DNA of 64,000 bases from the IMG/VR virus record IMGVR_UViG_3300042013_000103, one strand, 5' to 3'. This stretch comes from a virus. Its lineage: Duplodnaviria; Caudoviricetes. Numbering within the stretch: the first letter of the stretch is position 1; each line of letters begins with the position of its first letter. Of this stretch, positions 4,622 through 45,912 are shown in pieces. The translations under genes were made by a program, and so were the position numbers. A model generated the notes under the pieces. The model ran no database searches and was not told the origin of the DNA. It saw only the letters and a list, made by a program, of their open reading frames with translations.

Positions 4622-5214
4622 TGGTTCATCACTGTGCACAAGTCTTGGAAGTACGGCACGTCCAGCATCTCGATGTAGATGACGTCGCCTTCCCCGGTGC
4701 GGATGCATGCCTGCAGGAACTCCGTCGGGGTTGCGTTGGCAGCCCGGGCCATTGGGGCGGACCAATCGGGGTGGATTATCGTCACAGACCCATCAAACAA
4801 GGCTGCCCGTTCGTACAGGATGCCGAGCTGCTCTTTCAGTAAGTTACCTTCCTCCAACAACCGCGCGGCGTAGTACAACATCATGGGACGGCTGGCCAAA
4901 GGTTTCTCCATCAGGGAATACCGCTTGCCCTGCTGTGCCCCGAAGTAACCCGAGTTGATGTCCGGGGAACCAAACAACATGTTGGCCCACAGATGGTACT
5001 GGTACAACATGTCCGGGTTGTCCGAGGGGTACGATCGGACGTACTGTTTTTCGTCCACCAGGGTCGAGTACACAATCCGGCCGGTGGCCGGGTCGAGCAT
5101 CATGCCAATGTTATCCAGCGTGTGTTCCACAAACGGAACGTCGGTAAAGAGCCGGGCAATCAGCGCACAGGCATCTTGCAGTTTAGCGGAGTAGTAATTA
5201 ACAGCTACTGACAT
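4618..5214 (-). CDS. hypothetical protein
   Basis: 198 aa ORF directly downstream of an early promoter. Confidence 0.7.
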   Translation of the reverse strand: MSVAVNYYSAKLQDACALIARLFTDVPFVEHTLDNIGMMLDPATGRIVYSTLVDEKQYVRSYPSDNPDMLYQYHLWANMLFGSPDINSGYFGAQQGKRYSLMEKPLASRPMMLYYAARLLEEGNLLKEQLGILYERAALFDGSVTIIHPDWSAPMARAANATPTEFLQACIRTGEGDVIYIEMLDVPYFQDLCTVMNQ

Positions 5215-5246
5215 TTGGAGTCGCCTCTTAGGTAATTAGCACAGAC

Positions 5247-5277
5247 GTAATATAGTCGTTTAAACGGTTTGAATACA
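5247..5277 (-). promoter_or_regulatory. early promoter
   Basis: TGTATTCAA-N12-ACTATATTAC. Confidence 0.75.
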
Positions 5278-5293
5278 AAAAGAAATGGCATAA

Positions 5294-5315
5294 AGCCCCA
5301 CCCGAAGGTGAGGCT
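5294..5315 (-). terminator. intrinsic terminator
   Basis: imperfect hairpin with cgaa (UUCG) loop, followed by a T-tract on the minus strand. Confidence 0.6.
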
Positions 5316-5335
5316 CAAAAACACACGCGGTGCTG

Positions 5336-5647
5336 TTATGGCGTTACTGGCTTCGGTTCGACCGAGAACTTGACGTCCAGACGCTGAGCAGCGGCGTCGT
5401 ACGTGACGACAGCTTCTACCCAACCCTTGGCTTGGATAGCGGCAATCAGCGCCGCCGTGGCCGCGGCCGACAGTGGCGGGACTTTGCCCGGGCGACGGTA
5501 GTGGATCAGGTGGTAGTCGATCTCGGTTTCGGCACAGTAGTCCACGATCTGCGGGGACGCCAGGTACTCGTTGATACCGATCAGGGTGGAACGCAGTTCA
5601 GCGTCGACCAGTACGGCAGCGGCCTGGGCTTTAGTCAGAACATCCAT
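5336..5647 (-). CDS. hypothetical protein
   Basis: 103 aa ORF. Confidence 0.65.
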   Translation of the reverse strand: MDVLTKAQAAAVLVDAELRSTLIGINEYLASPQIVDYCAETEIDYHLIHYRRPGKVPPLSAAATAALIAAIQAKGWVEAVVTYDAAAQRLDVKFSVEPKPVTP

Positions 5648-16284: not shown

Positions 16285-17625
16285 TTACACCGCGATTGGG
16301 TAATCGATGTGGGGGAGGGACCCGTAGTCGCGAATGTCGAAATCTTCGAGTTTGAAATCGGTGATCTCGGTGACCGACGGGTTGAGGTACAGCACGGTGG
16401 TTTCTTCCAGCGGTTCACGTGCCAGTTGTTCTTTCACTTTATCCACTTGGTCGAGGTAGATGTGGCTATCGCCGGTGCAGTGGATGAACTCTTTCGGTTC
16501 CAGGTTGCCCACCACTTGGGCCAGCATCATGGTGAGCGTCGAATACCAGGCGATGTTATACGGCACGCCGACTGGGTAGTCTGCTGAACGCTGCGTGAGC
16601 ATACACGAAATCCAACGGGTTGGAATGCCATGGTTGGTGGCGTAGTCGTGTAGCATCTGGGCCGCTTTGGTAGAAGGATGACAGTGTGGATTCGCCAGCA
16701 TTTCGCGCCATGGGGTTAACATACCAGGGAAAGCCCCGGTGGTGTCGAAGTCACGGTCCATCCATTCGCTGAACAGGTTCCAGTGTCCGCCCTTACCGAA
16801 TTTCAGGGCCTCTACCAAGTCTTTGACCGATTTGTCGGTGATGTCGAACTGGAAGAATGCATGGCACGGCGGCAATGCCATGTCATCCAGCATGCCTGGG
16901 TTCCAGGCCGTGATGATGTGGCGACGGCTGTCAGGGTTGGTGCGCAGCGAGTTCACCAGCTCGGACAGCTGATCGGTGTTGCGGTACAGCACCACTTCAC
17001 CCGGGGTGTTGGCTTCGCCGACAATAGCAAACCCTTTACCCAACCACTTCTGGCAGTCCGCAGAATCCCGGGCCACAATCTTGAAGGTGTCCCAGTAACG
17101 GTACTGGTGACCATACACGGCACCAAGTTCACCGTCCATCAAGACTTCAGTGCGCACGCCCCGAATGTCCATCCAGTCGATAATGGCTTGGACGTCTTTG
17201 GGTTTGCACCAGAGCTTACCGTATTGCACGGTGGTGGCGTCTTGGTAAGTCTTGTGCAAACGGTGGGCGAAATGTTTGTTCCATTCGTCCAGGTGTTCCA
17301 TGGCGTCTTTCTGTACAAACTGAACGCGCTCGTCCCATGAATAAGTGCGGTAGACTTCGGTGCCTTTCTTGACCCACTTGTTCCAGAAGGTCACACCGCG
17401 GTCAATCAACCCTTTCAGGTGCGTGTCGCCGGTCAGGTACCACAGGCCTTCACGGACCGCATGCAACAACGGAATGTACCGCGTGGTCACCGCCGGGAGG
17501 TTGTTGCGTTTCAGGTTATACCGGGTTTGCATCCCGAACGTCGAGATCGTGCCGGTACCGGTACGGTCACCTTTGACGGAACCGTTGTCCAGAATGTATT
17601 GCAACGCTGCAAGATATTGTTTCAT
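16285..17625 (-). CDS. thyA: thymidylate synthase with large insertions
   Basis: GDRTGTGT, ELGAVYGHQYR, DSRRHIITAWNP, catalytic LPPCH, QRSADYPVGVPYN, GDSHIY. Confidence 0.95.
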   Translation of the reverse strand: MKQYLAALQYILDNGSVKGDRTGTGTISTFGMQTRYNLKRNNLPAVTTRYIPLLHAVREGLWYLTGDTHLKGLIDRGVTFWNKWVKKGTEVYRTYSWDERVQFVQKDAMEHLDEWNKHFAHRLHKTYQDATTVQYGKLWCKPKDVQAIIDWMDIRGVRTEVLMDGELGAVYGHQYRYWDTFKIVARDSADCQKWLGKGFAIVGEANTPGEVVLYRNTDQLSELVNSLRTNPDSRRHIITAWNPGMLDDMALPPCHAFFQFDITDKSVKDLVEALKFGKGGHWNLFSEWMDRDFDTTGAFPGMLTPWREMLANPHCHPSTKAAQMLHDYATNHGIPTRWISCMLTQRSADYPVGVPYNIAWYSTLTMMLAQVVGNLEPKEFIHCTGDSHIYLDQVDKVKEQLAREPLEETTVLYLNPSVTEITDFKLEDFDIRDYGSLPHIDYPIAV

Positions 17626-26913: not shown

Positions 26914-28140
26914 TTAACCGAGGTGGAACGGGTGCACTGAGATGTAGCGCCACTTCCACCCTTCGTAGTCCTTCAGGGCTTGGCAGAACAGGTGCTGTTG
27001 ATTGATGCCACGCATCGCAATGAACATGCCGTACGGAAGTTCTTCGGCTGACTCTTCCATGGCCCAGCTGTAGTTGATGTACTCACTCATGCGGGTGACT
27101 TTGAACAGCTTCAATTTACGCCCGACCGTTTTGTACGCCGCGATAATGGCCTTGCGTTCCGCCGGGTCGGTCACATCCCGCAGTTCAATGGCAAACGCCA
27201 TCATCCACTCCAGCATGTCGGACTGGTCTTGGTTCAACTGCTGTCGCTTGCGGTCCGCCCGTGTGGCAGTCAGCGACAACCCCACCAGCTGGTGTTCGAG
27301 CTCCGGCACACGGTTAGGGTCAATGGGTTGGAATGCCTGAGGGTAGCTACCCAACACGTCCATGTTCGTGATGTGGTCGTGCAGCGTTTCGCCGAACAAC
27401 AGGTTAGGTTGGGCAACAGCCCCTTCCGGGAGGATACCCAATTCAGAACTGAAGCCAAACACCGCACGGTCGATCTGCTCAGGCGTTAACGCGTCCTTGA
27501 ACATCTTGACCAAGGCATCGGCGTCGTCGGTGGAATCCAGCAGCAACGGCAAAGAATCGCCCTTAGCATCGCGTAGGTCATCCATCGTGGCACCACTGAG
27601 CCATTCTCGTCCGGCGGGTAAGTCTACCCACATCCCCGGGCTCTCCCCCACCAGTTGCGTAGGGATTTGTGTCTCGGCATGGCGTGCTTGACTTTCTTCA
27701 GACATTAGTTTGATCCAATTGCGTTTAGACATGGGTTCGTGTAAAATGTTAGAGCCGTGACACAAAGGACCAGGGGGCATGGGAACACAGAAGTCTTTCT
27801 CCCCGCTCTTTTTCACCCAGCGCCATTGGATCTCGTTACAGTCCAGATAGGAGCAGTTACTGACCGTACCGGTGATTACCCCGTGGCGAACGTCGATGAC
27901 TTCGCCGAGGTCGGCGAGATCCCGTTTAACCATGAGGTACTCCTCCTCCTGGGTTTCGCTGAACAAGCAACCCCACTCCTCCGTGACGTGCAAGGGTCCG
28001 AAACGGATGTAGTGAGGTTCGTAAAAACCATTTTTGTGACGCAGTACCGCATACGACACCACTTCCCCGGGCGCAGGGAAATTCTCAAGGTCATACCAAA
28101 ACGCTGAATCGGGGGGTGACCACAGTTTAGTGGGGGACAT
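26914..28140 (-). CDS. hypothetical protein, last gene of the EI-array operon
   Basis: 408 aa ORF; TAATG overlap with the last array ORF. Confidence 0.8.
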   Translation of the reverse strand: MSPTKLWSPPDSAFWYDLENFPAPGEVVSYAVLRHKNGFYEPHYIRFGPLHVTEEWGCLFSETQEEEYLMVKRDLADLGEVIDVRHGVITGTVSNCSYLDCNEIQWRWVKKSGEKDFCVPMPPGPLCHGSNILHEPMSKRNWIKLMSEESQARHAETQIPTQLVGESPGMWVDLPAGREWLSGATMDDLRDAKGDSLPLLLDSTDDADALVKMFKDALTPEQIDRAVFGFSSELGILPEGAVAQPNLLFGETLHDHITNMDVLGSYPQAFQPIDPNRVPELEHQLVGLSLTATRADRKRQQLNQDQSDMLEWMMAFAIELRDVTDPAERKAIIAAYKTVGRKLKLFKVTRMSEYINYSWAMEESAEELPYGMFIAMRGINQQHLFCQALKDYEGWKWRYISVHPFHLG

Positions 28141-28382
28141 TAGTCACTTCCTATTTCATGCTGCGCTTTGCGGTTAATGAGGACCCTGGATGCCATACGT
28201 CCAACGTACGTGGGTTGTGTATGAACGACCGAAGGGTCAATCGTTGTCCCCGGTACCCGGGCGGCTTTGAAGGCTTGGCGATCCTGCAACAATTGCCGCG
28301 CGTAGTCTGCTAGCCCTTTGGCCATCACTGTACCGGCGCGCTGCATGTATTCGTCAGAATTAGCCACGATTTCATGGCTCAT
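28140..28382 (-). CDS. EI-array microprotein (MSHEIVA...HEIGSD), 80 aa
   Basis: ORF track plus shared motifs. Confidence 0.75.
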   Translation of the reverse strand: MSHEIVANSDEYMQRAGTVMAKGLADYARQLLQDRQAFKAARVPGTTIDPSVVHTQPTYVGRMASRVLINRKAQHEIGSD

Positions 28383-28683
28383 CGATGCCCCCTATTTCAT
28401 TCAGGTGCGGAGCGGAGCCGTATTGCCTAAACGTTTGGGTAGAACCCTCAGGGTCACCGATCTCCGGCTTCAATGTGAGCCGTCCTTGAGCGACGGCAAA
28501 AAGGTCCACGAACTGACGTAACCCACCGGAATTAGGTACGGCGTCGGGTATCTCCCTGCTCCCGGGCGGTTGCATGCTGAACCCGGCGTGTTTACCGGAC
28601 ATCAGGCTTTGTTCTCTCCGGAAAGGAATCGCCCCGTGGGCGGAATCGATGTTGTTGGAATCCGGTACTATCTCATGACTCAT
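28372..28683 (-). CDS. EI-array microprotein (MSHEIVP...NEIGGIDEP), 103 aa
   Basis: ORF track; GAGGA SD; internal REIP and PEIG. Confidence 0.75.
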   Translation of the reverse strand: MSHEIVPDSNNIDSAHGAIPFRREQSLMSGKHAGFSMQPPGSREIPDAVPNSGGLRQFVDLFAVAQGRLTLKPEIGDPEGSTQTFRQYGSAPHLNEIGGIDEP

Positions 28684-28754
28684 TGGAAGGTCCTCTTGGT
28701 AATGATGCGGTGATATAGTTGTTTATTCAGATGGAACGCAAGCGGGAATTTCAT
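28680..28754 (-). CDS. possible 24 aa linker peptide MKFPLAFHLNKQLYHRIITKRTFQ
   Basis: starts at an ATGAAAT junction with GGAG SD; ends in an ATGA overlap with 28683. Confidence 0.35.
   Translation of the reverse strand: MKFPLAFHLNKQLYHRIITKRTFQ
28710..28740 (-). promoter_or_regulatory. early promoter inside the EI array
   Basis: TGCGTTCCA-N12-ACTATATCAC. Confidence 0.65.
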
Positions 28755-28902
28755 TGGTCTCCGGACCGGACCTGGTGAGGTATTGCATCCAGCGTTCCAT
28801 AAACTCGGTTTCGGCTTTACTGACTTTGACTTGATAAGTGATCACCAAGTCCGGCACGGGTTCACGCACAACCGTCTCACCAATCTCAGCTGCCAATTTC
28901 AT
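28723..28902 (-). CDS. EI-array microprotein (MKLAAEIG...NEIPACVPSE), 59 aa, not in track
   Basis: translated by hand. Confidence 0.7.
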   Translation of the reverse strand: MKLAAEIGETVVREPVPDLVITYQVKVSKAETEFMERWMQYLTRSGPETNEIPACVPSE

Positions 28903-29071
28903 GCTGTTCTTTCCCGGTAGGAAATATGGTGAATTCTTCCGGCCTCCATTTGAGGCTGGGTTTATGCAGATGGGCGCTTAAATCCATTATGCCAAAAGAG
29001 ATGGACATGGGTTCGGTACTGGAACTAAAATTCTCCCGGTCAGCGGGGACGATCTCTTGGTCAGATTTCAT
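28886..29071 (-). CDS. EI-array microprotein (MKSDQEIV...HEIGS), 61 aa
   Basis: ORF track plus motifs. Confidence 0.75.
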   Translation of the reverse strand: MKSDQEIVPADRENFSSSTEPMSISFGIMDLSAHLHKPSLKWRPEEFTIFPTGKEQHEIGS

Positions 29072-29342
29072 TGCGAGGTTTCACCATAGCGCCGTATATC
29101 CAGAAATTGCCTTCGGCGTCGATGTCGCCATCAAAGTCCAGCGCCATACCGCCCACCCCGTAGGCGGCGCATAGGTTGGGCAGGGTCCCGTTAACGCCGA
29201 TTTCGGTGGCCAATGGCTTACGTGAAGTGCGCCCCACTATTTGGAGGTTGCTTACGTCGTCAGGCGTATAGGACATGGACCCAAACGACAGGACATCAAA
29301 TTCATCCGAAGGGTGATCCCCGATCTCACCATTAGATTTCAT
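29061..29342 (-). CDS. EI-array microprotein (MKSNGEIG...NEI), 93 aa
   Basis: ORF track plus motifs; internal TEIG. Confidence 0.75.
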   Translation of the reverse strand: MKSNGEIGDHPSDEFDVLSFGSMSYTPDDVSNLQIVGRTSRKPLATEIGVNGTLPNLCAAYGVGGMALDFDGDIDAEGNFWIYGAMVKPRNEI

Positions 29343-29544
29343 TGTCTGTCCCCTTGACCAACCGACGCATCCAGTCCGCGCTATGCAGTTTCAGTTTAGG
29401 CGAACACAAAACAAAATCCAACCCACTGGGGTTGTTGTGGAAGGTTTCGCAATCCTTACTGGATATGTCGGAAATGCCGTTAAACCGCACACGCGGTGCA
29501 CAGTTCCCAACGGGGGACCCACCGATTTCCTGGTCAGATTTCAT
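29332..29544 (-). CDS. EI-array microprotein (MKSDQEIG...NEI), 70 aa
   Basis: start placed at the junction ATG. Confidence 0.75.
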   Translation of the reverse strand: MKSDQEIGGSPVGNCAPRVRFNGISDISSKDCETFHNNPSGLDFVLCSPKLKLHSADWMRRLVKGTDNEI

Positions 29545-29722
29545 TGCCATCTTGTTTCTCCTTGGTCGTGGCGACTAGGACAGATTCGGAATAATACCGC
29601 CCCACACCGCCGCGTGACATGACAACGCCATTTTCGTCAAACATCAAAAACCCAGGCTGCCATGAAGGTGCCGGGTTTTCAGGCGTACCAATTTCCCGGG
29701 GTTGGCCCTTACTGGATTTCAT
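29534..29722 (-). CDS. EI-array microprotein (MKSSKGQPREIG...NEI), 62 aa
   Basis: start placed at the junction ATG 29722. Confidence 0.75.
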   Translation of the reverse strand: MKSSKGQPREIGTPENPAPSWQPGFLMFDENGVVMSRGGVGRYYSESVLVATTKEKQDGNEI

Positions 29723-29942
29723 TGGAGTCCACCAGCAACGCGTCCATGGGGTGGTTCGGTCGGTGAGTGTGAGCAAAAACCATACCGAGCTCACCGCGGC
29801 GGAGTCCACCCGACAAGGCGCGGTTCAGAAAACTCGCCCCAGCCGGCATGCGGGCATTAAGGTCCGGTGATGGCGAGCTGACCAAAGCAATCAGTTCGGA
29901 CATGCCATCAGATGCGCTACCGATTTCAGTATTAGATTTCAT
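29709..29942 (-). CDS. EI-array microprotein (MKSNTEIG...NEIQ), 77 aa, with a DnaB-like segment
   Basis: contains FLNRALSGGLRRGELGMVFA. Confidence 0.75.
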   Translation of the reverse strand: MKSNTEIGSASDGMSELIALVSSPSPDLNARMPAGASFLNRALSGGLRRGELGMVFAHTHRPNHPMDALLVDSNEIQ

Positions 29943-30099
29943 GGGGGTCCTCTTTCCGCTTCACGGGTTTGTGGTTGGAGTTCAGCTCTAACAAAGCAAA
30001 TAACTTGACAATAGCCGGACTGACATTACGGGGCCGGGTCCAACTGGGTTGCCACTCTGGTTCGCTTTGGGAGTCACCTATTTCACGATCCGATTTCAT
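29932..30099 (-). CDS. EI-array microprotein (MKSDREIG...HEI), 55 aa, not in track
   Basis: translated by hand. Confidence 0.7.
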   Translation of the reverse strand: MKSDREIGDSQSEPEWQPSWTRPRNVSPAIVKLFALLELNSNHKPVKRKEDPHEI

Positions 30100-30283
30100 T
30101 CGTGGGCTTCCCTAACGTATTTTGGTAATACTTCGTCTTCAAACCCAAACCCTTAGTTAGCAGGTTACTTAAGAGGTCTTTATAATAGATGTCCTTCAAT
30201 TGATCATCCAGACGTACCTGCAGCGCAAATAGGTTATCCAGATGCGGTGGCGGAGGGTCACCAATCTCGTTGTCAGATTTCAT
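30083..30283 (-). CDS. EI-array microprotein (MKSDNEIG...NEIGS), 66 aa
   Basis: ORF track plus motifs. Confidence 0.75.
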   Translation of the reverse strand: MKSDNEIGDPPPPHLDNLFALQVRLDDQLKDIYYKDLLSNLLTKGLGLKTKYYQNTLGKPTNEIGS

Positions 30284-30461
30284 TTTCAGTCACCGGGCGA
30301 GGCGGAAACATGACACTGCGTGATGGCGTGGTCATGAAGTAGGGTGGCTGAAAGACCGCATCCGCCCACAAACGTTCCCGTTCCACGGCATCCTGCATAA
30401 CCTCGGAAAATGTCTTGGGGGGAGGCGGTTGGACTGAAGGAATTTCGTTATCCGATTTCAT
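30273..30461 (-). CDS. EI-array microprotein (MKSDNEIP...NEI), 62 aa
   Basis: ORF track plus motifs. Confidence 0.75.
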   Translation of the reverse strand: MKSDNEIPSVQPPPPKTFSEVMQDAVERERLWADAVFQPPYFMTTPSRSVMFPPRPVTENEI

Positions 30462-30660
30462 TCTGTTCCAACCCTTTAAGGTTATACGAAAGTAGTTTCA
30501 TTGGCCTAGTCCACCGTTGGAAGTAGTCCACCCCAGAACAGTCAGAGAGCGTTTTAGATTTCAGCCGCGCGGACATTTCTTCTTGGACCAGTTGTTGGTA
30601 ACGGTCTGTCAGTTCCTCGACACTTAGGTTGTCCGAAGGAATCTCGCAATTAGATTTCAT
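30448..30660 (-). CDS. EI-array microprotein (MKSNCEIP...NEIG), 70 aa
   Basis: start placed at the junction ATG 30660. Confidence 0.75.
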   Translation of the reverse strand: MKSNCEIPSDNLSVEELTDRYQQLVQEEMSARLKSKTLSDCSGVDYFQRWTRPMKLLSYNLKGLEQNEIG

Positions 30661-30796
30661 TAGGATTCTCCCGTCGGCGACGTTTCTCAGCGGCAATGGC
30701 CAAGCGGTCTTTAAGCCACCGCTGATATCGCAGGTCGAACTCTTCCGAAGTTTCCGGACGATCCCGAGGAATCGTCGTGTGCTTAGTGGATTTCAT
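30650..30796 (-). CDS. EI-array microprotein (MKSTKHTTIP...NEI), 48 aa, not in track
   Basis: translated by hand. Confidence 0.7.
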   Translation of the reverse strand: MKSTKHTTIPRDRPETSEEFDLRYQRWLKDRLAIAAEKRRRRENPNEI

Positions 30797-30953
30797 TTTG
30801 ATCCCCCGTGGGTTCCCACCCTTTCCAGCTCTCCATATGGGCAGCGATGCATTGCCTCGTAAATTCCGCGAGTTTCAGCGTGTTTTCATCCACCGTCGGA
30901 ACTCGATTGGGTGGAATCTCCAACAACGGTTTAGTTTTGTTTGAAGTGTCCAT
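30783..30953 (-). CDS. first EI-array microprotein (MDTSNKTKPLLEIP...NEIH), 56 aa, not in track
   Basis: translated by hand. Confidence 0.65.
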   Translation of the reverse strand: MDTSNKTKPLLEIPPNRVPTVDENTLKLAEFTRQCIAAHMESWKGWEPTGDQNEIH

Positions 30954-31794: not shown

Positions 31795-31820
31795 GTAATA
31801 TATTCCCAAAAATAAATGCA
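31795..31820 (-). promoter_or_regulatory. early promoter upstream of the EI-array operon
   Basis: TGCATTTAT...ATATATTAC. Confidence 0.65.
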
Positions 31821-40518: not shown

Positions 40519-41832
40519 TTAGCTAGCGAAACCAAAAGCGGCTTTCTTGTTCTGGATCGGTTCCGGACGGAAGTTGATCACTTCGGCCAAGGTCACGTCG
40601 TTGGTCGCGAATTCAGCCAGCTCCAGGCCCATCATGGCACGCACGTCGTTGCCCTGCTCGTACGTCATGGTGCCGAACTTCAGAATGTCGAAGCAACGAC
40701 CCGGACGCACCAAGGCTTCATCCACCGAGGCGATGGTAGGCAGGTTGGTGGAGATGATGATCTTCACGTCACGCGACACAATCCCGGCGGTGGTGTTCAG
40801 CAACGCCGACATGGCACTGTTGCCTTCGGTACGTTTCATCACGAGTTTGTCGGAGTCTTCGGTGATCATTACCGAACCCGCTTGGCAATCGCGGATGTAG
40901 TCCGACAGGCCCTGGTGCAACAGCACGTCTTCACGGTCCGCCAAGTGAATCTTCTCGTCCCAGCCACGGGCTTCCATCATCTGCAGAATGAAGTTGGATT
41001 TACCCGTACCCGGAGGACCAATCAACAACATCACATTGGCGTTAGACGCCGCGAACTCGGCCCAGACCTGCGCCGGGGATTTGTTCATGTACGGGTAGAA
41101 CCGGGTGATGTCGCTGTACTCTTTGACCGGCGGAATGGTTTCCACCACCTGGGTCAGTTCGCCTTGCGCGGTCAACCGCAGGCGGGTCAGGAACGCAGTC
41201 GGTTTGGAGTTGGCCAGTTCGTTGAAACCTTTCTCAATGTACTCGGCCAGGGCCGGCACGGCGATCAGGTCCATGCTTGACTTGGTGGCGCTCGAATCCG
41301 GAATCACCAGCGCCCCCAGGATCTGGGTTTCGTTCACGATCAGTCGACCCATCAGCGTACGGATATAACGCAGGCCGATCGGTTTCAACAGCGCGCTGTC
41401 GATCTGCGCGATCAGTGCCTTATCGTGGTCTTCCGGTTTGGCGGCATGGGGCACGTCGGACCTCAGCCCCACCATGGCTTGGTCAAACCCTTTCGATGAA
41501 AAGTAGATCCGCGACACGTCATAAATGTTATCGCCGCGCAGCAGCGCCAGGCACTGGTTCCATTTATTGATTTCTTCCAACAGTGCAGGAGTTGCGGCTT
41601 CAGGCAGAAAATTCATAGTGTTCGTTCCATTTGTGTGGGTAAAGGTAGTGTGTTCGTATTCATCTGGGCGTTTTAAATCGGGTATGTACAAACAACGAAA
41701 GCGGAAGAACCAATCGGTGGTGGTACGAATGTTGAATTCAGCTGAATCGAATACAATCGCTGGGTCCAGGGATCGGGTATCTCGGTTGTCGGTGGGGTAG
41801 TAATCCTTTTTACGGTTAATATCGTGGATCAC
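40519..41832 (-). CDS. AAA+ ATPase with an in-frame N-terminal RKK module (alternative start ATG 41616)
   Basis: GPPGTGKS, ITEDSD, STN, LVRPGRCFD. Confidence 0.9.
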   Translation of the reverse strand: MIHDINRKKDYYPTDNRDTRSLDPAIVFDSAEFNIRTTTDWFFRFRCLYIPDLKRPDEYEHTTFTHTNGTNTMNFLPEAATPALLEEINKWNQCLALLRGDNIYDVSRIYFSSKGFDQAMVGLRSDVPHAAKPEDHDKALIAQIDSALLKPIGLRYIRTLMGRLIVNETQILGALVIPDSSATKSSMDLIAVPALAEYIEKGFNELANSKPTAFLTRLRLTAQGELTQVVETIPPVKEYSDITRFYPYMNKSPAQVWAEFAASNANVMLLIGPPGTGKSNFILQMMEARGWDEKIHLADREDVLLHQGLSDYIRDCQAGSVMITEDSDKLVMKRTEGNSAMSALLNTTAGIVSRDVKIIISTNLPTIASVDEALVRPGRCFDILKFGTMTYEQGNDVRAMMGLELAEFATNDVTLAEVINFRPEPIQNKKAAFGFAS

Positions 41833-42041
41833 CAGGTTTCCCCGTACCTACGGATGGCCATCGATTCCCGATCGCCCGGCACCAGATAATCGGGTCGGTA
41901 ACATTCCAGCACAGGTCCGTGTTCAACCACCGATTGATGGATGTACCGTTCATCCCCTTTCGACGTGGGAAACATGTCTTGCCGTTGGAAGGTGATTTGT
42001 CGGTACCAGTTCAACCATTTCTTGCGATCAATCGCGTGCAT
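41829..42041 (-). CDS. RKK microprotein (MHAIDRKKWL), 70 aa
   Basis: GGAGG SD at ATG 42041. Confidence 0.75.
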   Translation of the reverse strand: MHAIDRKKWLNWYRQITFQRQDMFPTSKGDERYIHQSVVEHGPVLECYRPDYLVPGDRESMAIRRYGETW

Positions 42042-42241
42042 GGGACCTCCTGCAAGAACGTTGTATAATCCACGGGGTAAGGGCACCACCGGGGAGCAGC
42101 AGGAGCGACACCGTGCTTCTCTGGGTTTTGTGGCTTTCGACAAGGATCACCACCGTGGTTGTAATCGTGTTCCGTGCACAGGTCCTTGTTGGGGTCGTCC
42201 GAACTACGCCAGATGAACCCCTTCTTTCGGTTGTACTCCAT
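42011..42241 (-). CDS. RKK microprotein (MEYNRKKGF), 76 aa
   Basis: ORF track plus motif. Confidence 0.7.
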   Translation of the reverse strand: MEYNRKKGFIWRSSDDPNKDLCTEHDYNHGGDPCRKPQNPEKHGVAPAAPRWCPYPVDYTTFLQEVPCTRLIARNG

Positions 42242-42434
42242 GGTGCGGCCCTAGGAAAGTTTGATGGTCGTTCGGGTATCGATAGAGGTAAGGTTCAAGT
42301 CGTTGGTGTGCCCACTGCTCCGGATCACAACCGACCTGCTTCTCCTCCATGGGTTTACCCTCATGAAAACTACGCAACCCTTTATGCACCCAGAACCCCC
42401 CGAAACACCGATTCTTTTTACGACAGACGTTCAT
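42204..42434 (-). CDS. RKK microprotein (MNVCRKKNR), 76 aa
   Basis: ATGA overlap plus motif. Confidence 0.7.
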   Translation of the reverse strand: MNVCRKKNRCFGGFWVHKGLRSFHEGKPMEEKQVGCDPEQWAHQRLEPYLYRYPNDHQTFLGPHHGVQPKEGVHLA

Positions 42435-42637
42435 GGTCGATAATCCTTCTCCAGCCTAAACACGGCATTGTTGTCAGGGTAGCCCGTGGGAGTTTCTCGA
42501 AGACACCCATATTCGTCCGGATTATCATTGTCGTCGAATTCACGGGCCGTGCGGGTGCCGTAATCGCACGTACGCGTACGGCTGTCCTTCCACCGACTGT
42601 ATTTCCGGGGATGTTTCTTACGCATGGTATCCAGCAT
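42431..42637 (-). CDS. RKK microprotein (MLDTMRKKHP), 68 aa
   Basis: ORF track plus motif. Confidence 0.7.
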   Translation of the reverse strand: MLDTMRKKHPRKYSRWKDSRTRTCDYGTRTAREFDDNDNPDEYGCLRETPTGYPDNNAVFRLEKDYRP

Positions 42638-42640
42638 CGA

Positions 42641-42853
42641 CTAGGTCTCCGGAAGAAAGGTAGTCTGACAGTGGCGGTCATCCCGGCGTAACTTGGTTTC
42701 TTTGTCCTCGAGGATGACCCACTCTTCTTGGTTTTCAGCCAAGTGGCTGTTGTAGTCAGTTACATGGACGGGATCGGCGTGCAAGGTACGTTGTCCATCT
42801 TGCCTAAAGGACCGTCGGGGAAAACCTTTCTTCCGGTAGACGTCTATAATCAA
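42641..42853 (-). CDS. RKK microprotein (MIIDVYRKKGF), 70 aa
   Basis: TTG start plus motif. Confidence 0.7.
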   Translation of the reverse strand: MIIDVYRKKGFPRRSFRQDGQRTLHADPVHVTDYNSHLAENQEEWVILEDKETKLRRDDRHCQTTFLPET

Positions 42854-42856
42854 AAC

Positions 42857-43075
42857 CTATACCCCACCTTTTACTCTGGGCATGTGTCCGTCGTTGTTAT
42901 CGGGATGCATGGTAACGGTATCCAAACAATCAAACTCGATGTCAGGGTCTTCTGGTCCGGACAAATCTATCGAATGCCAATCTGACCAATTAGCCGATCT
43001 CGACATGCGTTCACCACACATCCCCAACCCAGGATTACGGTGCAATTGTTTCTTACGGGTGAGTTCATGGGACAT
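42857..43075 (-). CDS. RKK microprotein (MSHELTRKKQL), 72 aa
   Basis: start moved to ATG 43075. Confidence 0.7.
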   Translation of the reverse strand: MSHELTRKKQLHRNPGLGMCGERMSRSANWSDWHSIDLSGPEDPDIEFDCLDTVTMHPDNNDGHMPRVKGGV

Positions 43076-43106
43076 CGGTGGGCTGCCCTTCTTTCCATCC
43101 ATAACC

Positions 43107-43319
43107 TTACCTGCGGGTGATAAGACGACTTTGTCCCGTGTCCAAGGACTGGGTGTACGTTCTGTGTGCCCGACGAAAATCCGAGTTAGCCCAACCCATC
43201 TGGTCTTCCCGGGCAGTGTCGTAGAAATCACCCGTTTCCATGGCTTCCACCGAAACATGCGCGCGGCCAGGATGACGGTCCGCTTTCTTGCGCCAGAACT
43301 CTACGTCAACGCAGTTCAC
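43107..43319 (-). CDS. RKK microprotein (MNCVDVEFWRKKAD), 70 aa
   Basis: GTG 43319 after GGGA. Confidence 0.65.
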   Translation of the reverse strand: MNCVDVEFWRKKADRHPGRAHVSVEAMETGDFYDTAREDQMGWANSDFRRAHRTYTQSLDTGQSRLITRR

Positions 43320-43476
43320 GGCGGTTCCCAGGTTTTCGCTGAGCGGTGGAGTTAGGGACCAACGCTTCTGACCGGAACACCAGTCGCGAGGAGCGTTGCA
43401 TCTCGATGTCGAGCAACCAATGAGCGTACAACATCTCATCGTCGAGACGAGGGATGGGGGCCTGCTTATTCGGCAT
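43306..43476 (-). CDS. 56 aa leader gene of the RKK operon, not in track
   Basis: GAGGA SD; MPNKQAPIPRLDDEMLYAHW. Confidence 0.6.
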   Translation of the reverse strand: MPNKQAPIPRLDDEMLYAHWLLDIEMQRSSRLVFRSEALVPNSTAQRKPGNRRELR

Positions 43477-43515
43477 AGTAAAGGTCCTCGTAAAATCGAT
43501 GGGGCTAGCATAAAG

Positions 43516-43546
43516 GTAATATAGTCTTGACTTTTTCTAAAATGCG
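43516..43546 (-). promoter_or_regulatory. early promoter upstream of the RKK array
   Basis: CGCATTTTA-N12-ACTATATTAC. Confidence 0.8.
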
Positions 43547-43551
43547 ACATA

Positions 43552-43573
43552 CTGCCTCCCAGCCGGGAGGCAG
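43552..43573. terminator. hairpin/terminator
   Basis: ctgcctccc-agcc-gggaggcag. Confidence 0.6.
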
Positions 43574-43803
43574 ATATGCTTTTTGCCAAGACCTCTTTGC
43601 AGAGGCTATAGAACAAGGCGCCGTTGAACACCAGCGATATCTCACGACAAGGCCTTAAGGCGTTCGCTAGGTTATGGACTGGATCACCCCCTTAAAGTGC
43701 AGCGCTTAACGCAAACTGCCTCGCTCTATATAACATGATACAGCGGGTAGTTATTTACGAAATGGACAATCTTATGACCTTTCCCCATCCCCTTTAAACA
43801 GGA

Positions 43804-45912
43804 TTGCCCGCAATGTTCGATTTCTATCGGAAAAAGACGGACGTAGTACAGGCCAAGGAAAACGATACCGAAATCTTCTTGTCGGGCATCGATGGCCACG
43901 CCCTCATCCGGGACATCAACAAACACTGGAAAACCACCAAGATCACCAGCTACATGTTTAACAAGATCGAACGCACGGGGGTCAGCTTCTACAAGTTCTG
44001 GGCCGTGGAAGTGCTGTACATGGTTGCCGAAATCAAGAACTACCGCAACCGTTACACCTCGGTCCGCACCATGAATGCTATTAAGGAAGCGTTGCTCAAA
44101 GACACATGGCTGAAGTCCACGTTGCCCGAGAACACGTTGAACAAAGCAGGACGGTTGAACTTCGATAACCTCAAACGTTTGAAGTTCACGCCCGAGCCGT
44201 ACCAGATGGATTACTTCAAGGACTACGCCCACCGGTTAGACCAGTACGGGTTGAACGGGGACTTGATGGCTGCCGCCGCCGGTACCGGGAAAACTTTTTT
44301 GTCCACCGCCATTGCAGAAATGCTCGATGCCAAATATTTTGTGGTGGTAGCCCCGAAAGTAGCGATTGAGACGGTGTGGATTACATCCATCCCCGATATG
44401 TACCATAAAGAACCAACCACCTGGAACACCATCAGTGGCGACCCCTATAAAGGTGAGAGGGTATTGTTGGTACATTACGAGGCATTGGACCGTTTGTTGG
44501 AAATCACCGACCGCTTGGGGACCACAGATGTGGTGGTGTACCTGGACGAGTCGCACAACCTGAACACCCCCGACAGCTTACGGACCACGTTGTTTGCGCA
44601 AGCGTGCCGTGCGGTGAAATGCCGGAACATCCTGGAAGGGTCAGGCACGGCGTTGAAAGCGATGGGCGCGGAACTGATTCCCTTGTACCGGTTGATCGAC
44701 CCTCTGTTCACGGACAAGGTGGAATTCCGGTTCAAGAAGATCTACGGCAAAGAAGCCAAGAAAGGGTTGGACATCATTCAACACCGCTTGTCCATCTCTT
44801 CGTACAAGATCGAGAAAGCCGAACTGGCGTTGGCCCCACCGATCATGCGTGCTCACCCGATCAAAATCCCCAATGGGGACATGTTCACGTTGGACGCGAT
44901 CAAGGTCGATGCCCATAAGTTCATCAAAGAACGCTGGGTCTATTACGACAAACGCCGGAAGGCCGATGAAGCGTTCTGGGCCAGGTGCATGGACATGTTG
45001 CACAACACCCAGAAAGGCGGCACCAAGGAAGCGGAACTCAAGACCTACCTCCGGAACTTAAAGGTGGTGGTCAACGCAGGCATGGTCTGGGAAATCCCAG
45101 ATGAACTGAAAGCCTGCACCAAGTACGAGAAAGAAGTCTTTGAGAAGTGTTTGCCAGCGACGTGGGTAAAACAGTTCCGGGACGTGAAGTCCGTGATCAA
45201 GTACACCAATTTGAAGATACAGGGAGAGTGTCTTGGACGTATCCTCGGCGGTAAGAGAATTGAAGCTCACGTGGCAATGGTCCCGTTCGTGGACTGGGTT
45301 GGCATTGTGGAGTCTACGGAAAAGAAAACAATTATGTTTACTTCGTTTGTCGAAGCGCTTGAGGCAGCCGAGAGCCACACGCAGAAGTTAGGGTTTAAAC
45401 CGATCGTTGTCTATGGGAAGACTTCCAATGACTTGGCCACTAGCGTGGATCGTTTTGATACTGATGCTCAACTCAACCCCCTTATTGCTACTTTTGCCAC
45501 GTTGTCGACAGCGGTTCGCTTGACGATGGCCGACACCATGATCATGCTGAACTCCCCGTTCCGGCAATACATCATGGAGCAAGCGATTTCACGTATCTAC
45601 CGGATGGGCCAGGACTCGCAAACCTACGTGTACCAGGTCTCGCTCGACACCGGAGACAAACCGAACATCTCCACACGTTCTGCAGACATTCTGGCGTGGT
45701 CAACCGAAATGGTGGAGGCCATGCTTGGGGTAAAATCTCCATTCATCGTAGGCGAGGCTTTAGAGGCCTTTGAGCACTGCCAGTTCGATGAAGACCGTGC
45801 CTTGCACTATCAGCTGTCCAAAGCGTACGAACCGTTGGGCATTGACATTGCCCTTGAGCAATTCCTGATGCCTTCCCCTATTGCAAACAAACCAGCGTAC
45901 ATGAGCTGGTAA
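43804..45912 (+). CDS. SNF2/SF2-type helicase
   Basis: AAAGTGKT, LDESHN, SGT, EQAISRIYRMGQ; the start may be ATG 43813. Confidence 0.9.
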   Translation: MPAMFDFYRKKTDVVQAKENDTEIFLSGIDGHALIRDINKHWKTTKITSYMFNKIERTGVSFYKFWAVEVLYMVAEIKNYRNRYTSVRTMNAIKEALLKDTWLKSTLPENTLNKAGRLNFDNLKRLKFTPEPYQMDYFKDYAHRLDQYGLNGDLMAAAAGTGKTFLSTAIAEMLDAKYFVVVAPKVAIETVWITSIPDMYHKEPTTWNTISGDPYKGERVLLVHYEALDRLLEITDRLGTTDVVVYLDESHNLNTPDSLRTTLFAQACRAVKCRNILEGSGTALKAMGAELIPLYRLIDPLFTDKVEFRFKKIYGKEAKKGLDIIQHRLSISSYKIEKAELALAPPIMRAHPIKIPNGDMFTLDAIKVDAHKFIKERWVYYDKRRKADEAFWARCMDMLHNTQKGGTKEAELKTYLRNLKVVVNAGMVWEIPDELKACTKYEKEVFEKCLPATWVKQFRDVKSVIKYTNLKIQGECLGRILGGKRIEAHVAMVPFVDWVGIVESTEKKTIMFTSFVEALEAAESHTQKLGFKPIVVYGKTSNDLATSVDRFDTDAQLNPLIATFATLSTAVRLTMADTMIMLNSPFRQYIMEQAISRIYRMGQDSQTYVYQVSLDTGDKPNISTRSADILAWSTEMVEAMLGVKSPFIVGEALEAFEHCQFDEDRALHYQLSKAYEPLGIDIALEQFLMPSPIANKPAYMSW

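Follow-up and report, generated by a model that had tools for sequence, protein, structure and literature searches.

Small, fast-evolving phage proteins with a common N-terminal RKK tag are encoded in a tandem array before the gp208-type AAA+ ATPase of nucleus-forming jumbo phages

What is the family, and what might be the use, of a row of small phage genes whose products have three residues near the N-terminus in common and hardly anything else? The question is raised by a 64,000-nucleotide stretch of viral DNA (IMG/VR record IMGVR_UViG_3300042013_000103; this whole stretch is called the window in the following), where eight consecutive minus-strand open reading frames (ORFs; 43319-41617) of 68-76 codons each, all with Arg-Lys-Lys (RKK) at residues 5-12, lead up to the gene of an AAA+ ATPase orthologous to phiKZ gp208. 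The window phage belongs to the Chimalliviridae (the phiKZ-like, nucleus-forming jumbo phages) and has Phabio as its nearest named relative. The safest statement is that these ORFs, here called modules W1-W8, represent an undescribed family of fast-evolving, probably disordered accessory proteins, defined by D-x-x-R-K-K and by their position before a gp208-type ATPase. The family is new but of a familiar kind, that of hypervariable small phage proteins with a common N-terminal handle; its members are about 70-90 residues long and specific to a sub-clade of the Chimalliviridae, and a literature search for RKK together with jumbo phages yielded no paper. Compartmentalised infection is studied with nucleus-forming jumbo phages as a model, yet the majority of their small early genes still await an explanation. 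In at least six phage lineages (that of the window and five others), a three-residue N-terminal motif persists where all other similarity of sequence has gone, and both gene position and two gene fusions link the family that carries it to an AAA+ ATPase that is conserved but uncharacterised.

The module genes form a translationally coupled tandem array directly before the gp208-type ATPase, every module start either having a Shine-Dalgarno sequence or being coupled to a stop codon (ATGA, GTGA and the like). All are encoded on the minus strand: W1 (43107..43319; GTG start, 70 codons) includes VDVEFWRKK, with RKK at residues 10-12; W2 (42857..43075) has 72 codons from MSHELTRKK onwards, or 81 from an alternative, earlier ATG at 43102; W3 (42641..42853; TTG start, 70 codons) begins with MIIDVYRKK and W4 (42431..42637; 68 codons) with MLDTMRKK; W5 (42204..42434; 76 codons, MNVCRKK) has an ATGA overlap with W4 and a 3' end that overlaps W6 by 38 nt; W6 (42011..42241; 76 codons, MEYNRKK) overlaps both W5 and W7 in other frames; W7 (41829..42041; 70 codons, MHAIDRKK) has a GGAGG Shine-Dalgarno sequence; and W8 (41617..41832; 72 codons, MIHDINRKK) starts with GTG in a GTGA overlap with W7. 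The residue three before RKK is mostly Asp, Glu or Asn. Six-frame translation of the window gives 24 RKK in total, 9 of which fall within 2 kb (41814-43828), each 4-9 codons past a start codon (the RKK of the divergent helicase gene discussed below is counted in), and this clustering is far beyond chance. A first-pass annotation of the window had listed eight N-terminal strings (VEFWRKK, ELTRKK, DVYRKK, DTMRKK, NVCRKK, EYNRKK, AIDRKK and DINRKK), lengths of 68-76 residues, the codon variants CGC/CGT/CGG/CGA and AAG/AAA, a leader ORF and an octamer at 43516, and all of these were found, the strings at their places on the minus strand. Its treatment of the eighth module as a separate gene had to be given up, as W8 has no stop codon and forms an in-frame N-terminal extension of the ATPase ORF.

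The translation that this annotation presupposed could be assessed with near-identical metagenomic relatives of the window, L003 (98.2% identical over 5.3 kb) and L004 (96.7% over 1 kb). With respect to L003, W1-W7 have accumulated 6/5/29 substitutions at codon positions 1/2/3, i.e. 28 synonymous and 12 non-synonymous changes, and this third-position excess implies that the module frames are under purifying selection. By their substitution pattern the modules are thus a real, translated protein family under purifying selection in the proposed frames. The synonymous/non-synonymous counts were 5/1 for W1, 3/0 for W2, 8/3 for W5, 6/2 for W7 and 11/12 for W8; W6 alone (1/4), which overlaps both neighbours, is without substitution support for its frame. 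Variation in the region peaks in the array, whose 1.7 kb contain some 63 of the 92 differences from L003, and W8 is the most variable part of all in this comparison. Dense substitution patches, with many non-synonymous changes, were observed in W8 (window 41680-41790) and in the W5 orthologue of L004 (157-387; changes clustered at residues 9-11 and 29-35), in genomes that are otherwise 97-98% identical. These patches look like short recombination tracts or local diversification.

More distant arrays were reached via the flanking ATPase, by alignment-guided scans and protein look-ups, the ATPases concerned being 42-57% identical to that of the window. Five further metagenomic lineages were recovered in this way (L005 and L009 with L017; L006 and L010 with L012; L018; L020; and L021), and in each of them the ATPase is immediately preceded by 5-8 small ORFs (63-116 residues) whose N-termini likewise read [DN]-x-x-R-K-K, for instance MADIDRKK, MDVLRKK, MAADVYRKK, MSIDQHRKK, MLDITRKK, MTYDPSRKK, MSDINRKK and DLANRKK. 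The expectation of the first-pass annotation that RKK should be conserved in homologues was thus borne out. Position -3 of the tag is Asp or Glu in 23 of 40 aligned modules and Asn in 6 more, and position counts extend the motif to hydrophobic-[D/N]-[V/I]-x-R-K-K at about residues 3-12, past which there is a slight excess of aromatics and Pro (+3 to +10), then of acidic residues and then of Gly. In these alignments, the tag h-[D/N]-h-x-R-K-K (h, hydrophobic) is near-invariant at the amino-acid level across lineages, the rest of the proteins having diverged beyond recognition.

It could be argued that the conserved element acts at the RNA level, as an A-rich initiation enhancer or a regulator site past the start codon, and that the peptides are unimportant. 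Its distance from the start codons is fixed, and Lys-Lys is encoded by AAG AAA in 21 of the 26 modules with an exact RKK. However, the preceding Arg of these modules is encoded by CGN in 16 cases and by AGA in 10, with CGT, CGC, CGG, CGA and AGA all in use, and as CGN and AGA are unconnected codon families the constraint must lie on the amino acid and not on the nucleotide. The AAG AAA preference, for its part, is accounted for by the avoidance of slippery A AAA AAG runs: AAA AAG and AAA AAA occur solely after CGT and never after AGA. Moreover, the flanking nucleotides are not conserved (no nucleotide motif was found beyond the RKK codons), and the third-position substitution bias indicates that the peptides are constrained over their whole length. 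The codon data therefore largely exclude an RNA-level element, which we consider improbable in the extreme, and uphold the earlier proposal, made from the synonymous codon variants in the window, of selection at the protein level.

The bodies behind the tag behave very differently from the tag itself. With the tag removed, leave-one-out hidden Markov models (HMMs) of the window modules did not recover the omitted module, and an HMM trained on the other lineages gave no signal for the window modules; W3 has the best cross-lineage HMM score among the latter (E 0.0026). A search with the profile of the eight modules, which the first-pass annotation had recommended, returned their own lineage from 1.84 billion representatives, together with two repeat-protein artefacts, but missed the distant arrays, and no wider family emerged from these representatives, from Pfam or from the PHROGs, where no match better than E 0.02 was obtained for any of the eight. 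The best of the Atlas look-alikes had a feature score of 0.82, which is below the useful range. The description of the modules as a paralog family holds for one lineage, that of L010/L012, in which paralogy is clear (B1/B2, E 6e-16) and accompanied by a web of weak links among many others; the window modules, on the other hand, are not significantly alike beyond the tag. Like size, composition, position and tag nevertheless argue for a common descent of the modules. The weak downstream motifs that had been noted earlier (a central DP[DE], and an aromatic-T towards the C-terminus) can be made out, but statistically they cannot be told apart from an effect of composition, and the C-terminal one is largely the Shine-Dalgarno sequence of the next ORF; the family-wide alignment (41 gappy rows) likewise hints at a Gly about 15 residues past the tag and a central D-P-[D/E], which we do not take as established. 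The C-terminal D-Y-T-R-E type motif seen in several lineages was considered as a second tag and rejected as independent evidence, since its codons coincide with the next ORF's Shine-Dalgarno sequence (CGG GAG TAA, then ATG).

Where orthologous modules could be paired, the rapid diversification that had been suggested for the window was evident. Between L010 and L012 the ATPases are 98% identical (non-synonymous divergence, dN, 0.010; synonymous divergence, dS, 0.33), whereas identity in the six module pairs varies between 97% and 39%, and in three of the six dS lies far above that of the ATPase, which points to allele replacement and not to simple fast drift. Between L009 and L017 the corresponding values are 82% for the ATPase and 41-65% for the modules. 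Overall, the modules evolve 2-60 times faster than the ATPase, with a dN/dS of 0.04-0.42 where measurable (relaxed yet purifying), and identity between orthologues is 74% over the first 12 residues, 60% in the middle and 78% over the last 8.

The composition of the modules is that of strongly hydrophilic chains: their grand average of hydropathy (GRAVY) is about -1.1 (range -0.5 to -1.7), as compared to -0.25 for the large proteins of the window, Asp (11.8%) and Arg (9.6%) are frequent, Leu and Ala are halved, and the net charge is near-neutral. AlphaFold2 (AF2) predicted no secondary structure for W5 when given the 41-row family alignment (predicted local distance difference test, pLDDT, 54; predicted template-modelling score, pTM, 0.13) and no fold for W8 inside the ATPase fusion (pLDDT about 30), and ESMFold2 predicted none for W7 (pLDDT 29-33), although low confidence may also stem from shallow, poorly alignable input, so that the modules may yet have a fold. 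A common fold was therefore not recovered for W5, W7 and W8, and the idea of variable effector surfaces, which presupposes a fold, is not supported. By prediction the modules have the marks of disorder, and they are probably for the most part disordered chains with short linear motifs.

The ATPase gene (40519..41616, minus strand) is the orthologue of phiKZ gp208 (PHIKZ208); it matches Pfam AAA and phrog_14322 and has its own conserved ATG (MNFLPE). A single AAA module comes after a mixed alpha/beta domain at the N-terminus of the protein, which is without a transmembrane segment. Among solved structures the best match by sequence is Bcs1 (E 3e-5), and by fold (Foldseek) Bcs1/YjoB, weakly (E 5e-3; template-modelling score about 0.2); the protein is a classical-clade AAA whose assignment as Bcs1-like is weak, the overall layout conforming to it and the missing transmembrane segment not. 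Early in infection, PhiKZ208 sediments within large complexes (PMC10914614). The array lies directly upstream of a gp208-type ATPase in all RKK lineages, i.e. the adjacency is invariant. In the window, W8 runs in frame into the ATPase, giving a single ORF of 437 codons (41832-40519, minus strand), and gene callers report a W8-ATPase fusion of 438 residues in L003. An in-frame fusion of the last module to the ATPase, with a strongly diverged module part, is also present in the P0011-P0013 clade (L009, L017), which is not the sister of the window lineage in the ATPase tree. The fusions of L009 and L017 keep a canonical AGGAG and ATG where unfused relatives start the ATPase; in the window, the internal Shine-Dalgarno sequence before the ATPase ATG is weak. 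Given the retained ribosome-binding site and ATG, the fused lineages would be expected to yield a long, tagged isoform of the ATPase plus a short one.

In Phabio (gp299-gp306) and in L013-L015 and L019, small ORFs of similar size (61-96 residues) and hydrophilic make-up occupy the same place before the same ATPase, but the tag is degenerate there and reads RK, RNK, KQRKD and similar. These lineages form one well-supported clade among 32 ATPases, and their ATPases have 34-62 residues before the LLRGDN motif, as opposed to 23-32 in the RKK lineages. A coupling of tag degeneration to a longer ATPase N-terminus is only suggestive. Both phiKZ and HPP-Temi lack an array of small RKK genes before the ATPase and have larger, unrelated genes in its place.

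When might the array be expressed? The octamer TATATTAC, located at 43516..43523 on the minus strand, is a candidate early-promoter core of the array operon by virtue of its over-representation: the window holds 9 copies where 0.25 are expected (36-fold), at 2094, 4072, 5247, 8409, 19688, 26839, 31795, 43516 and 59800, 8 of which are on the gene (minus) strand, and an ORF start usually follows within some tens of bases. TATATTAC may be the equivalent of the phiKZ early-promoter core and would accordingly serve as early-promoter core of the window phage. Early genes of the Chimalliviridae have an AT-rich motif about 10 bp upstream of their start sites (PMC11512511); a literature search on the octamer itself gave nothing relevant. 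Between the octamer and W1 lies a leader ORF of 56 codons (43306..43476, minus strand), which is identical in L003, is without RKK and stands outside the module family. In the stretch that separates the array operon from the divergent helicase gene, immediately before the octamer, a scan for terminator-like elements found a perfect, GC-rich palindromic hairpin (43552..43573; 9-bp stem, 4-nt loop) that could terminate transcription both ways. Downstream of the copy of TATATTAC at 31795-31802, six-frame translation of 28140-30953 (minus strand) did not reveal RKK.

How could a constant tag on inconstant bodies be put to use? The explanation that we favour, tentatively and at a little less than an even chance, is that all modules would engage one common partner through the RKK peptide, which would thus act as a short linear docking motif; the earlier proposal of a docking or targeting tag seems reasonable in this light. 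The likeliest partner would be the co-transcribed, Bcs1-like remodelling or translocating AAA+ ATPase, of which the modules would be interchangeable disordered adaptors, substrates or decoys, and their variable bodies would probably track host targets in the course of host take-over or counter-defence. The hypothesis offered is, in short, that the tag binds the ATPase and that the variable tails select the targets. The ATPase is preferred as partner because array and ATPase gene are always adjacent, because fusion has recurred, and because tag and ATPase N-terminus have changed together once. In phiKZ, where an orthologous ATPase (gp208, 41% identity) lies in the gp206-216 cluster and the helicase gene gp203 is divergent on the other side, the cluster tolerates transposon insertions and is non-essential (bioRxiv 10.1101/2025.11.23.690004); this dispensability in the laboratory accords with a role that is accessory and host-specific. 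Should the modules serve counter-defence or host take-over, the array would offer their natural variants as a ready-made library.

Several observations weigh against a docking role. Without the tag, sequence does not demonstrate a common ancestry of the modules across lineages; tag loss and ATPase N-terminus are correlated through one evolutionary transition only; the AF2 model of the fusion does not have W8 docked onto the ATPase; TATATTAC was sought at the corresponding loci in the other RKK lineages and is absent there, which weakens the case for early expression; and the adjacency of array and ATPase may reflect a mere permissive insertion site in an island of accessory genes. A predicted complex of ATPase and W7 had a score of 0.00, which counts neither for nor against binding.

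The gene on the other side of the hairpin brings a different role for the tag into play. It encodes a divergent SNF2-type helicase of 699 residues (43813..45912, plus strand), recognised by its family matches as the orthologue of phiKZ gp203 and picked up in the RKK scan by its N-terminus MFDFYRKK (43813-43836). Among 120 helicase homologues the N-terminus M-[FIL]-[DSQ]-x-[FY]-R-[SRK]-h-h-G is universal, and the nearest relatives of the window helicase read RKM and RRI. We considered this helicase as a ninth member of the family and rejected it, its RKK being probably a local variant of the universal helicase N-terminus. In phiKZ, gp203 is processed and packaged in the head, and the N-terminal motif of the helicase may be a propeptide or a head-targeting part. 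As a separate observation, many helicase orthologues (e.g. P0090, P0091 and P0103) are about 1050 residues long and contain a LAGLIDADG_3 (PF14528) insert, intein-like or a homing endonuclease, that is lacking in the window.

The RKK tag might then be a virion (capsid or inner-body) targeting sequence, with modules that are packaged, ejected with the DNA and active on the host at time zero. The model for such a role is the internal protein (IP) locus of T4, the architecture of which is alike: IPI, IPII and IPIII are small, non-essential and poorly conserved proteins that have only a short N-terminal peptide in common, a capsid targeting sequence (CTS) of 10-19 residues that acts as handle (PMC9026906), and the locus is polymorphic between related phages, as the array is. 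The similarity of the tag to the start of the neighbouring helicase, M-h-D-x-[FY]-R-[KRS], the phiKZ counterpart of which is head-packaged, points the same way, but the likeness is short and may be due to chance: the helicase motif is present in all Chimalliviridae, including those without an array, and has RS or RR as often as RK. The motif of the T4 CTS is unrelated in sequence to the tag, and no conserved protease site follows the latter, since the [SAG]-x-E site of the phiKZ-protease type is not enriched past it (17 modules versus 12.9 +/- 3.2 in shuffles). The modules are near-neutral, unlike the basic IPII and IPIII, and seem by prediction to be disordered, whereas IPI is folded; and the array operon looks early and begins with an early-type promoter octamer. 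Virion targeting is, in our estimate, unlikely. Should the tag turn out to work as a handle on other proteins too, cargo could be directed with it in these phages, a use that the T4 CTS has already found. A similar logic, and nothing beyond the logic, connects the array to the RxLR proteins of oomycetes and the PEXEL proteins of Plasmodium, which are large, fast-evolving families with a very short conserved N-terminal motif; these belong to other organisms, have a signal peptide and rely on known trafficking machinery.

The strictly conserved terminal position of the tag would also suit a signal that sorts the modules, without any part of the ATPase in it, to some compartment within the infected cell (such as the inner membrane, the early-infection vesicle or the phage nucleus). 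The basic triplet, together with the slight enrichment of aromatics and Pro from +3 to +10, is reminiscent of targeting peptides of the interfacial or basic type, and the phage is of a nucleus-forming family. Nevertheless, no hydrophobic segment follows the tag, other nuclear-type proteins of the window (e.g. the ligase) start without RKK, and import into the phage nucleus is described in a review as dependent on surface residues of the folded cargo and on no terminal signal (PMC12908238), so that a sorting role for the tag would be new; we regard such a role as about as improbable as virion targeting. A variant that retains the ATPase would make D-x-x-R-K-K a terminal sorting or engagement signal for the gp208-type ATPase, which would deliver, translocate or unfold disordered clients, e.g. 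across or onto the phage-built compartment. This variant strikes us as a long shot; if true, it would mean a signal-peptide-like pathway in nucleus-forming phages beside the surface-patch-based PicA import.

Lastly, the RKK itself may be the active site, i.e. a basic anchor for RNA, DNA or the ribosome whose action is modulated by the disordered bodies. A basic triplet near the free N-terminus of otherwise acidic or neutral disordered chains is compatible with this, and other small early phiKZ proteins are known to bind ribosomes (PMC10914614). Three basic residues, however, bind nucleic acid weakly, the invariant R-K-K order and the acidic residue at -3 suggest specific recognition by a protein, and an anchor leaves the presence of 6-8 divergent copies without a reason. 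We therefore think an anchor of this kind rather improbable, and keep to a docking motif for a common partner as our working explanation.

The locus is in synteny with those of Phabio and phiKZ, the gene order being a divergent SNF2 helicase (phiKZ gp203), several small genes and the ATPase (phiKZ gp208), and tblastn with the window ATPase gave 53% identity to Phabio and 41% to phiKZ-type phages; megablast of the region against 50,697 phage records produced no match. The DNA of the region originates from rhizosphere metagenomes, and the phage is known from metagenomes alone: a search of sequencing runs retrieved the region from DNA-type rhizosphere metagenomes and as short contigs from one wastewater run. 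In this wastewater run (X3, labelled RNA-Seq), short contigs of 95-99% identity to window 40519-44000 cover parts of the ATPase, W4, W2 and the leader/promoter, and a close relative of the window phage is thus also present in wastewater. As the contigs are labelled RNA-Seq the array region is possibly transcribed, but they may also stem from DNA carry-over.

Two further genes deserve mention. In the RKK lineage L017, a gene at 5065-5505 that encodes 146 residues and is located two genes past the ATPase weakly matches Peptidase_S80, the phiKZ prohead protease family. The thymidylate synthase ORF of the window (16285-17625, minus strand) is unusually long, with 446 residues as well as 549 in L006 (24-1673), and its Pfam match falls into two stretches; the split match and the unusual length together suggest that this ORF carries an inserted segment.

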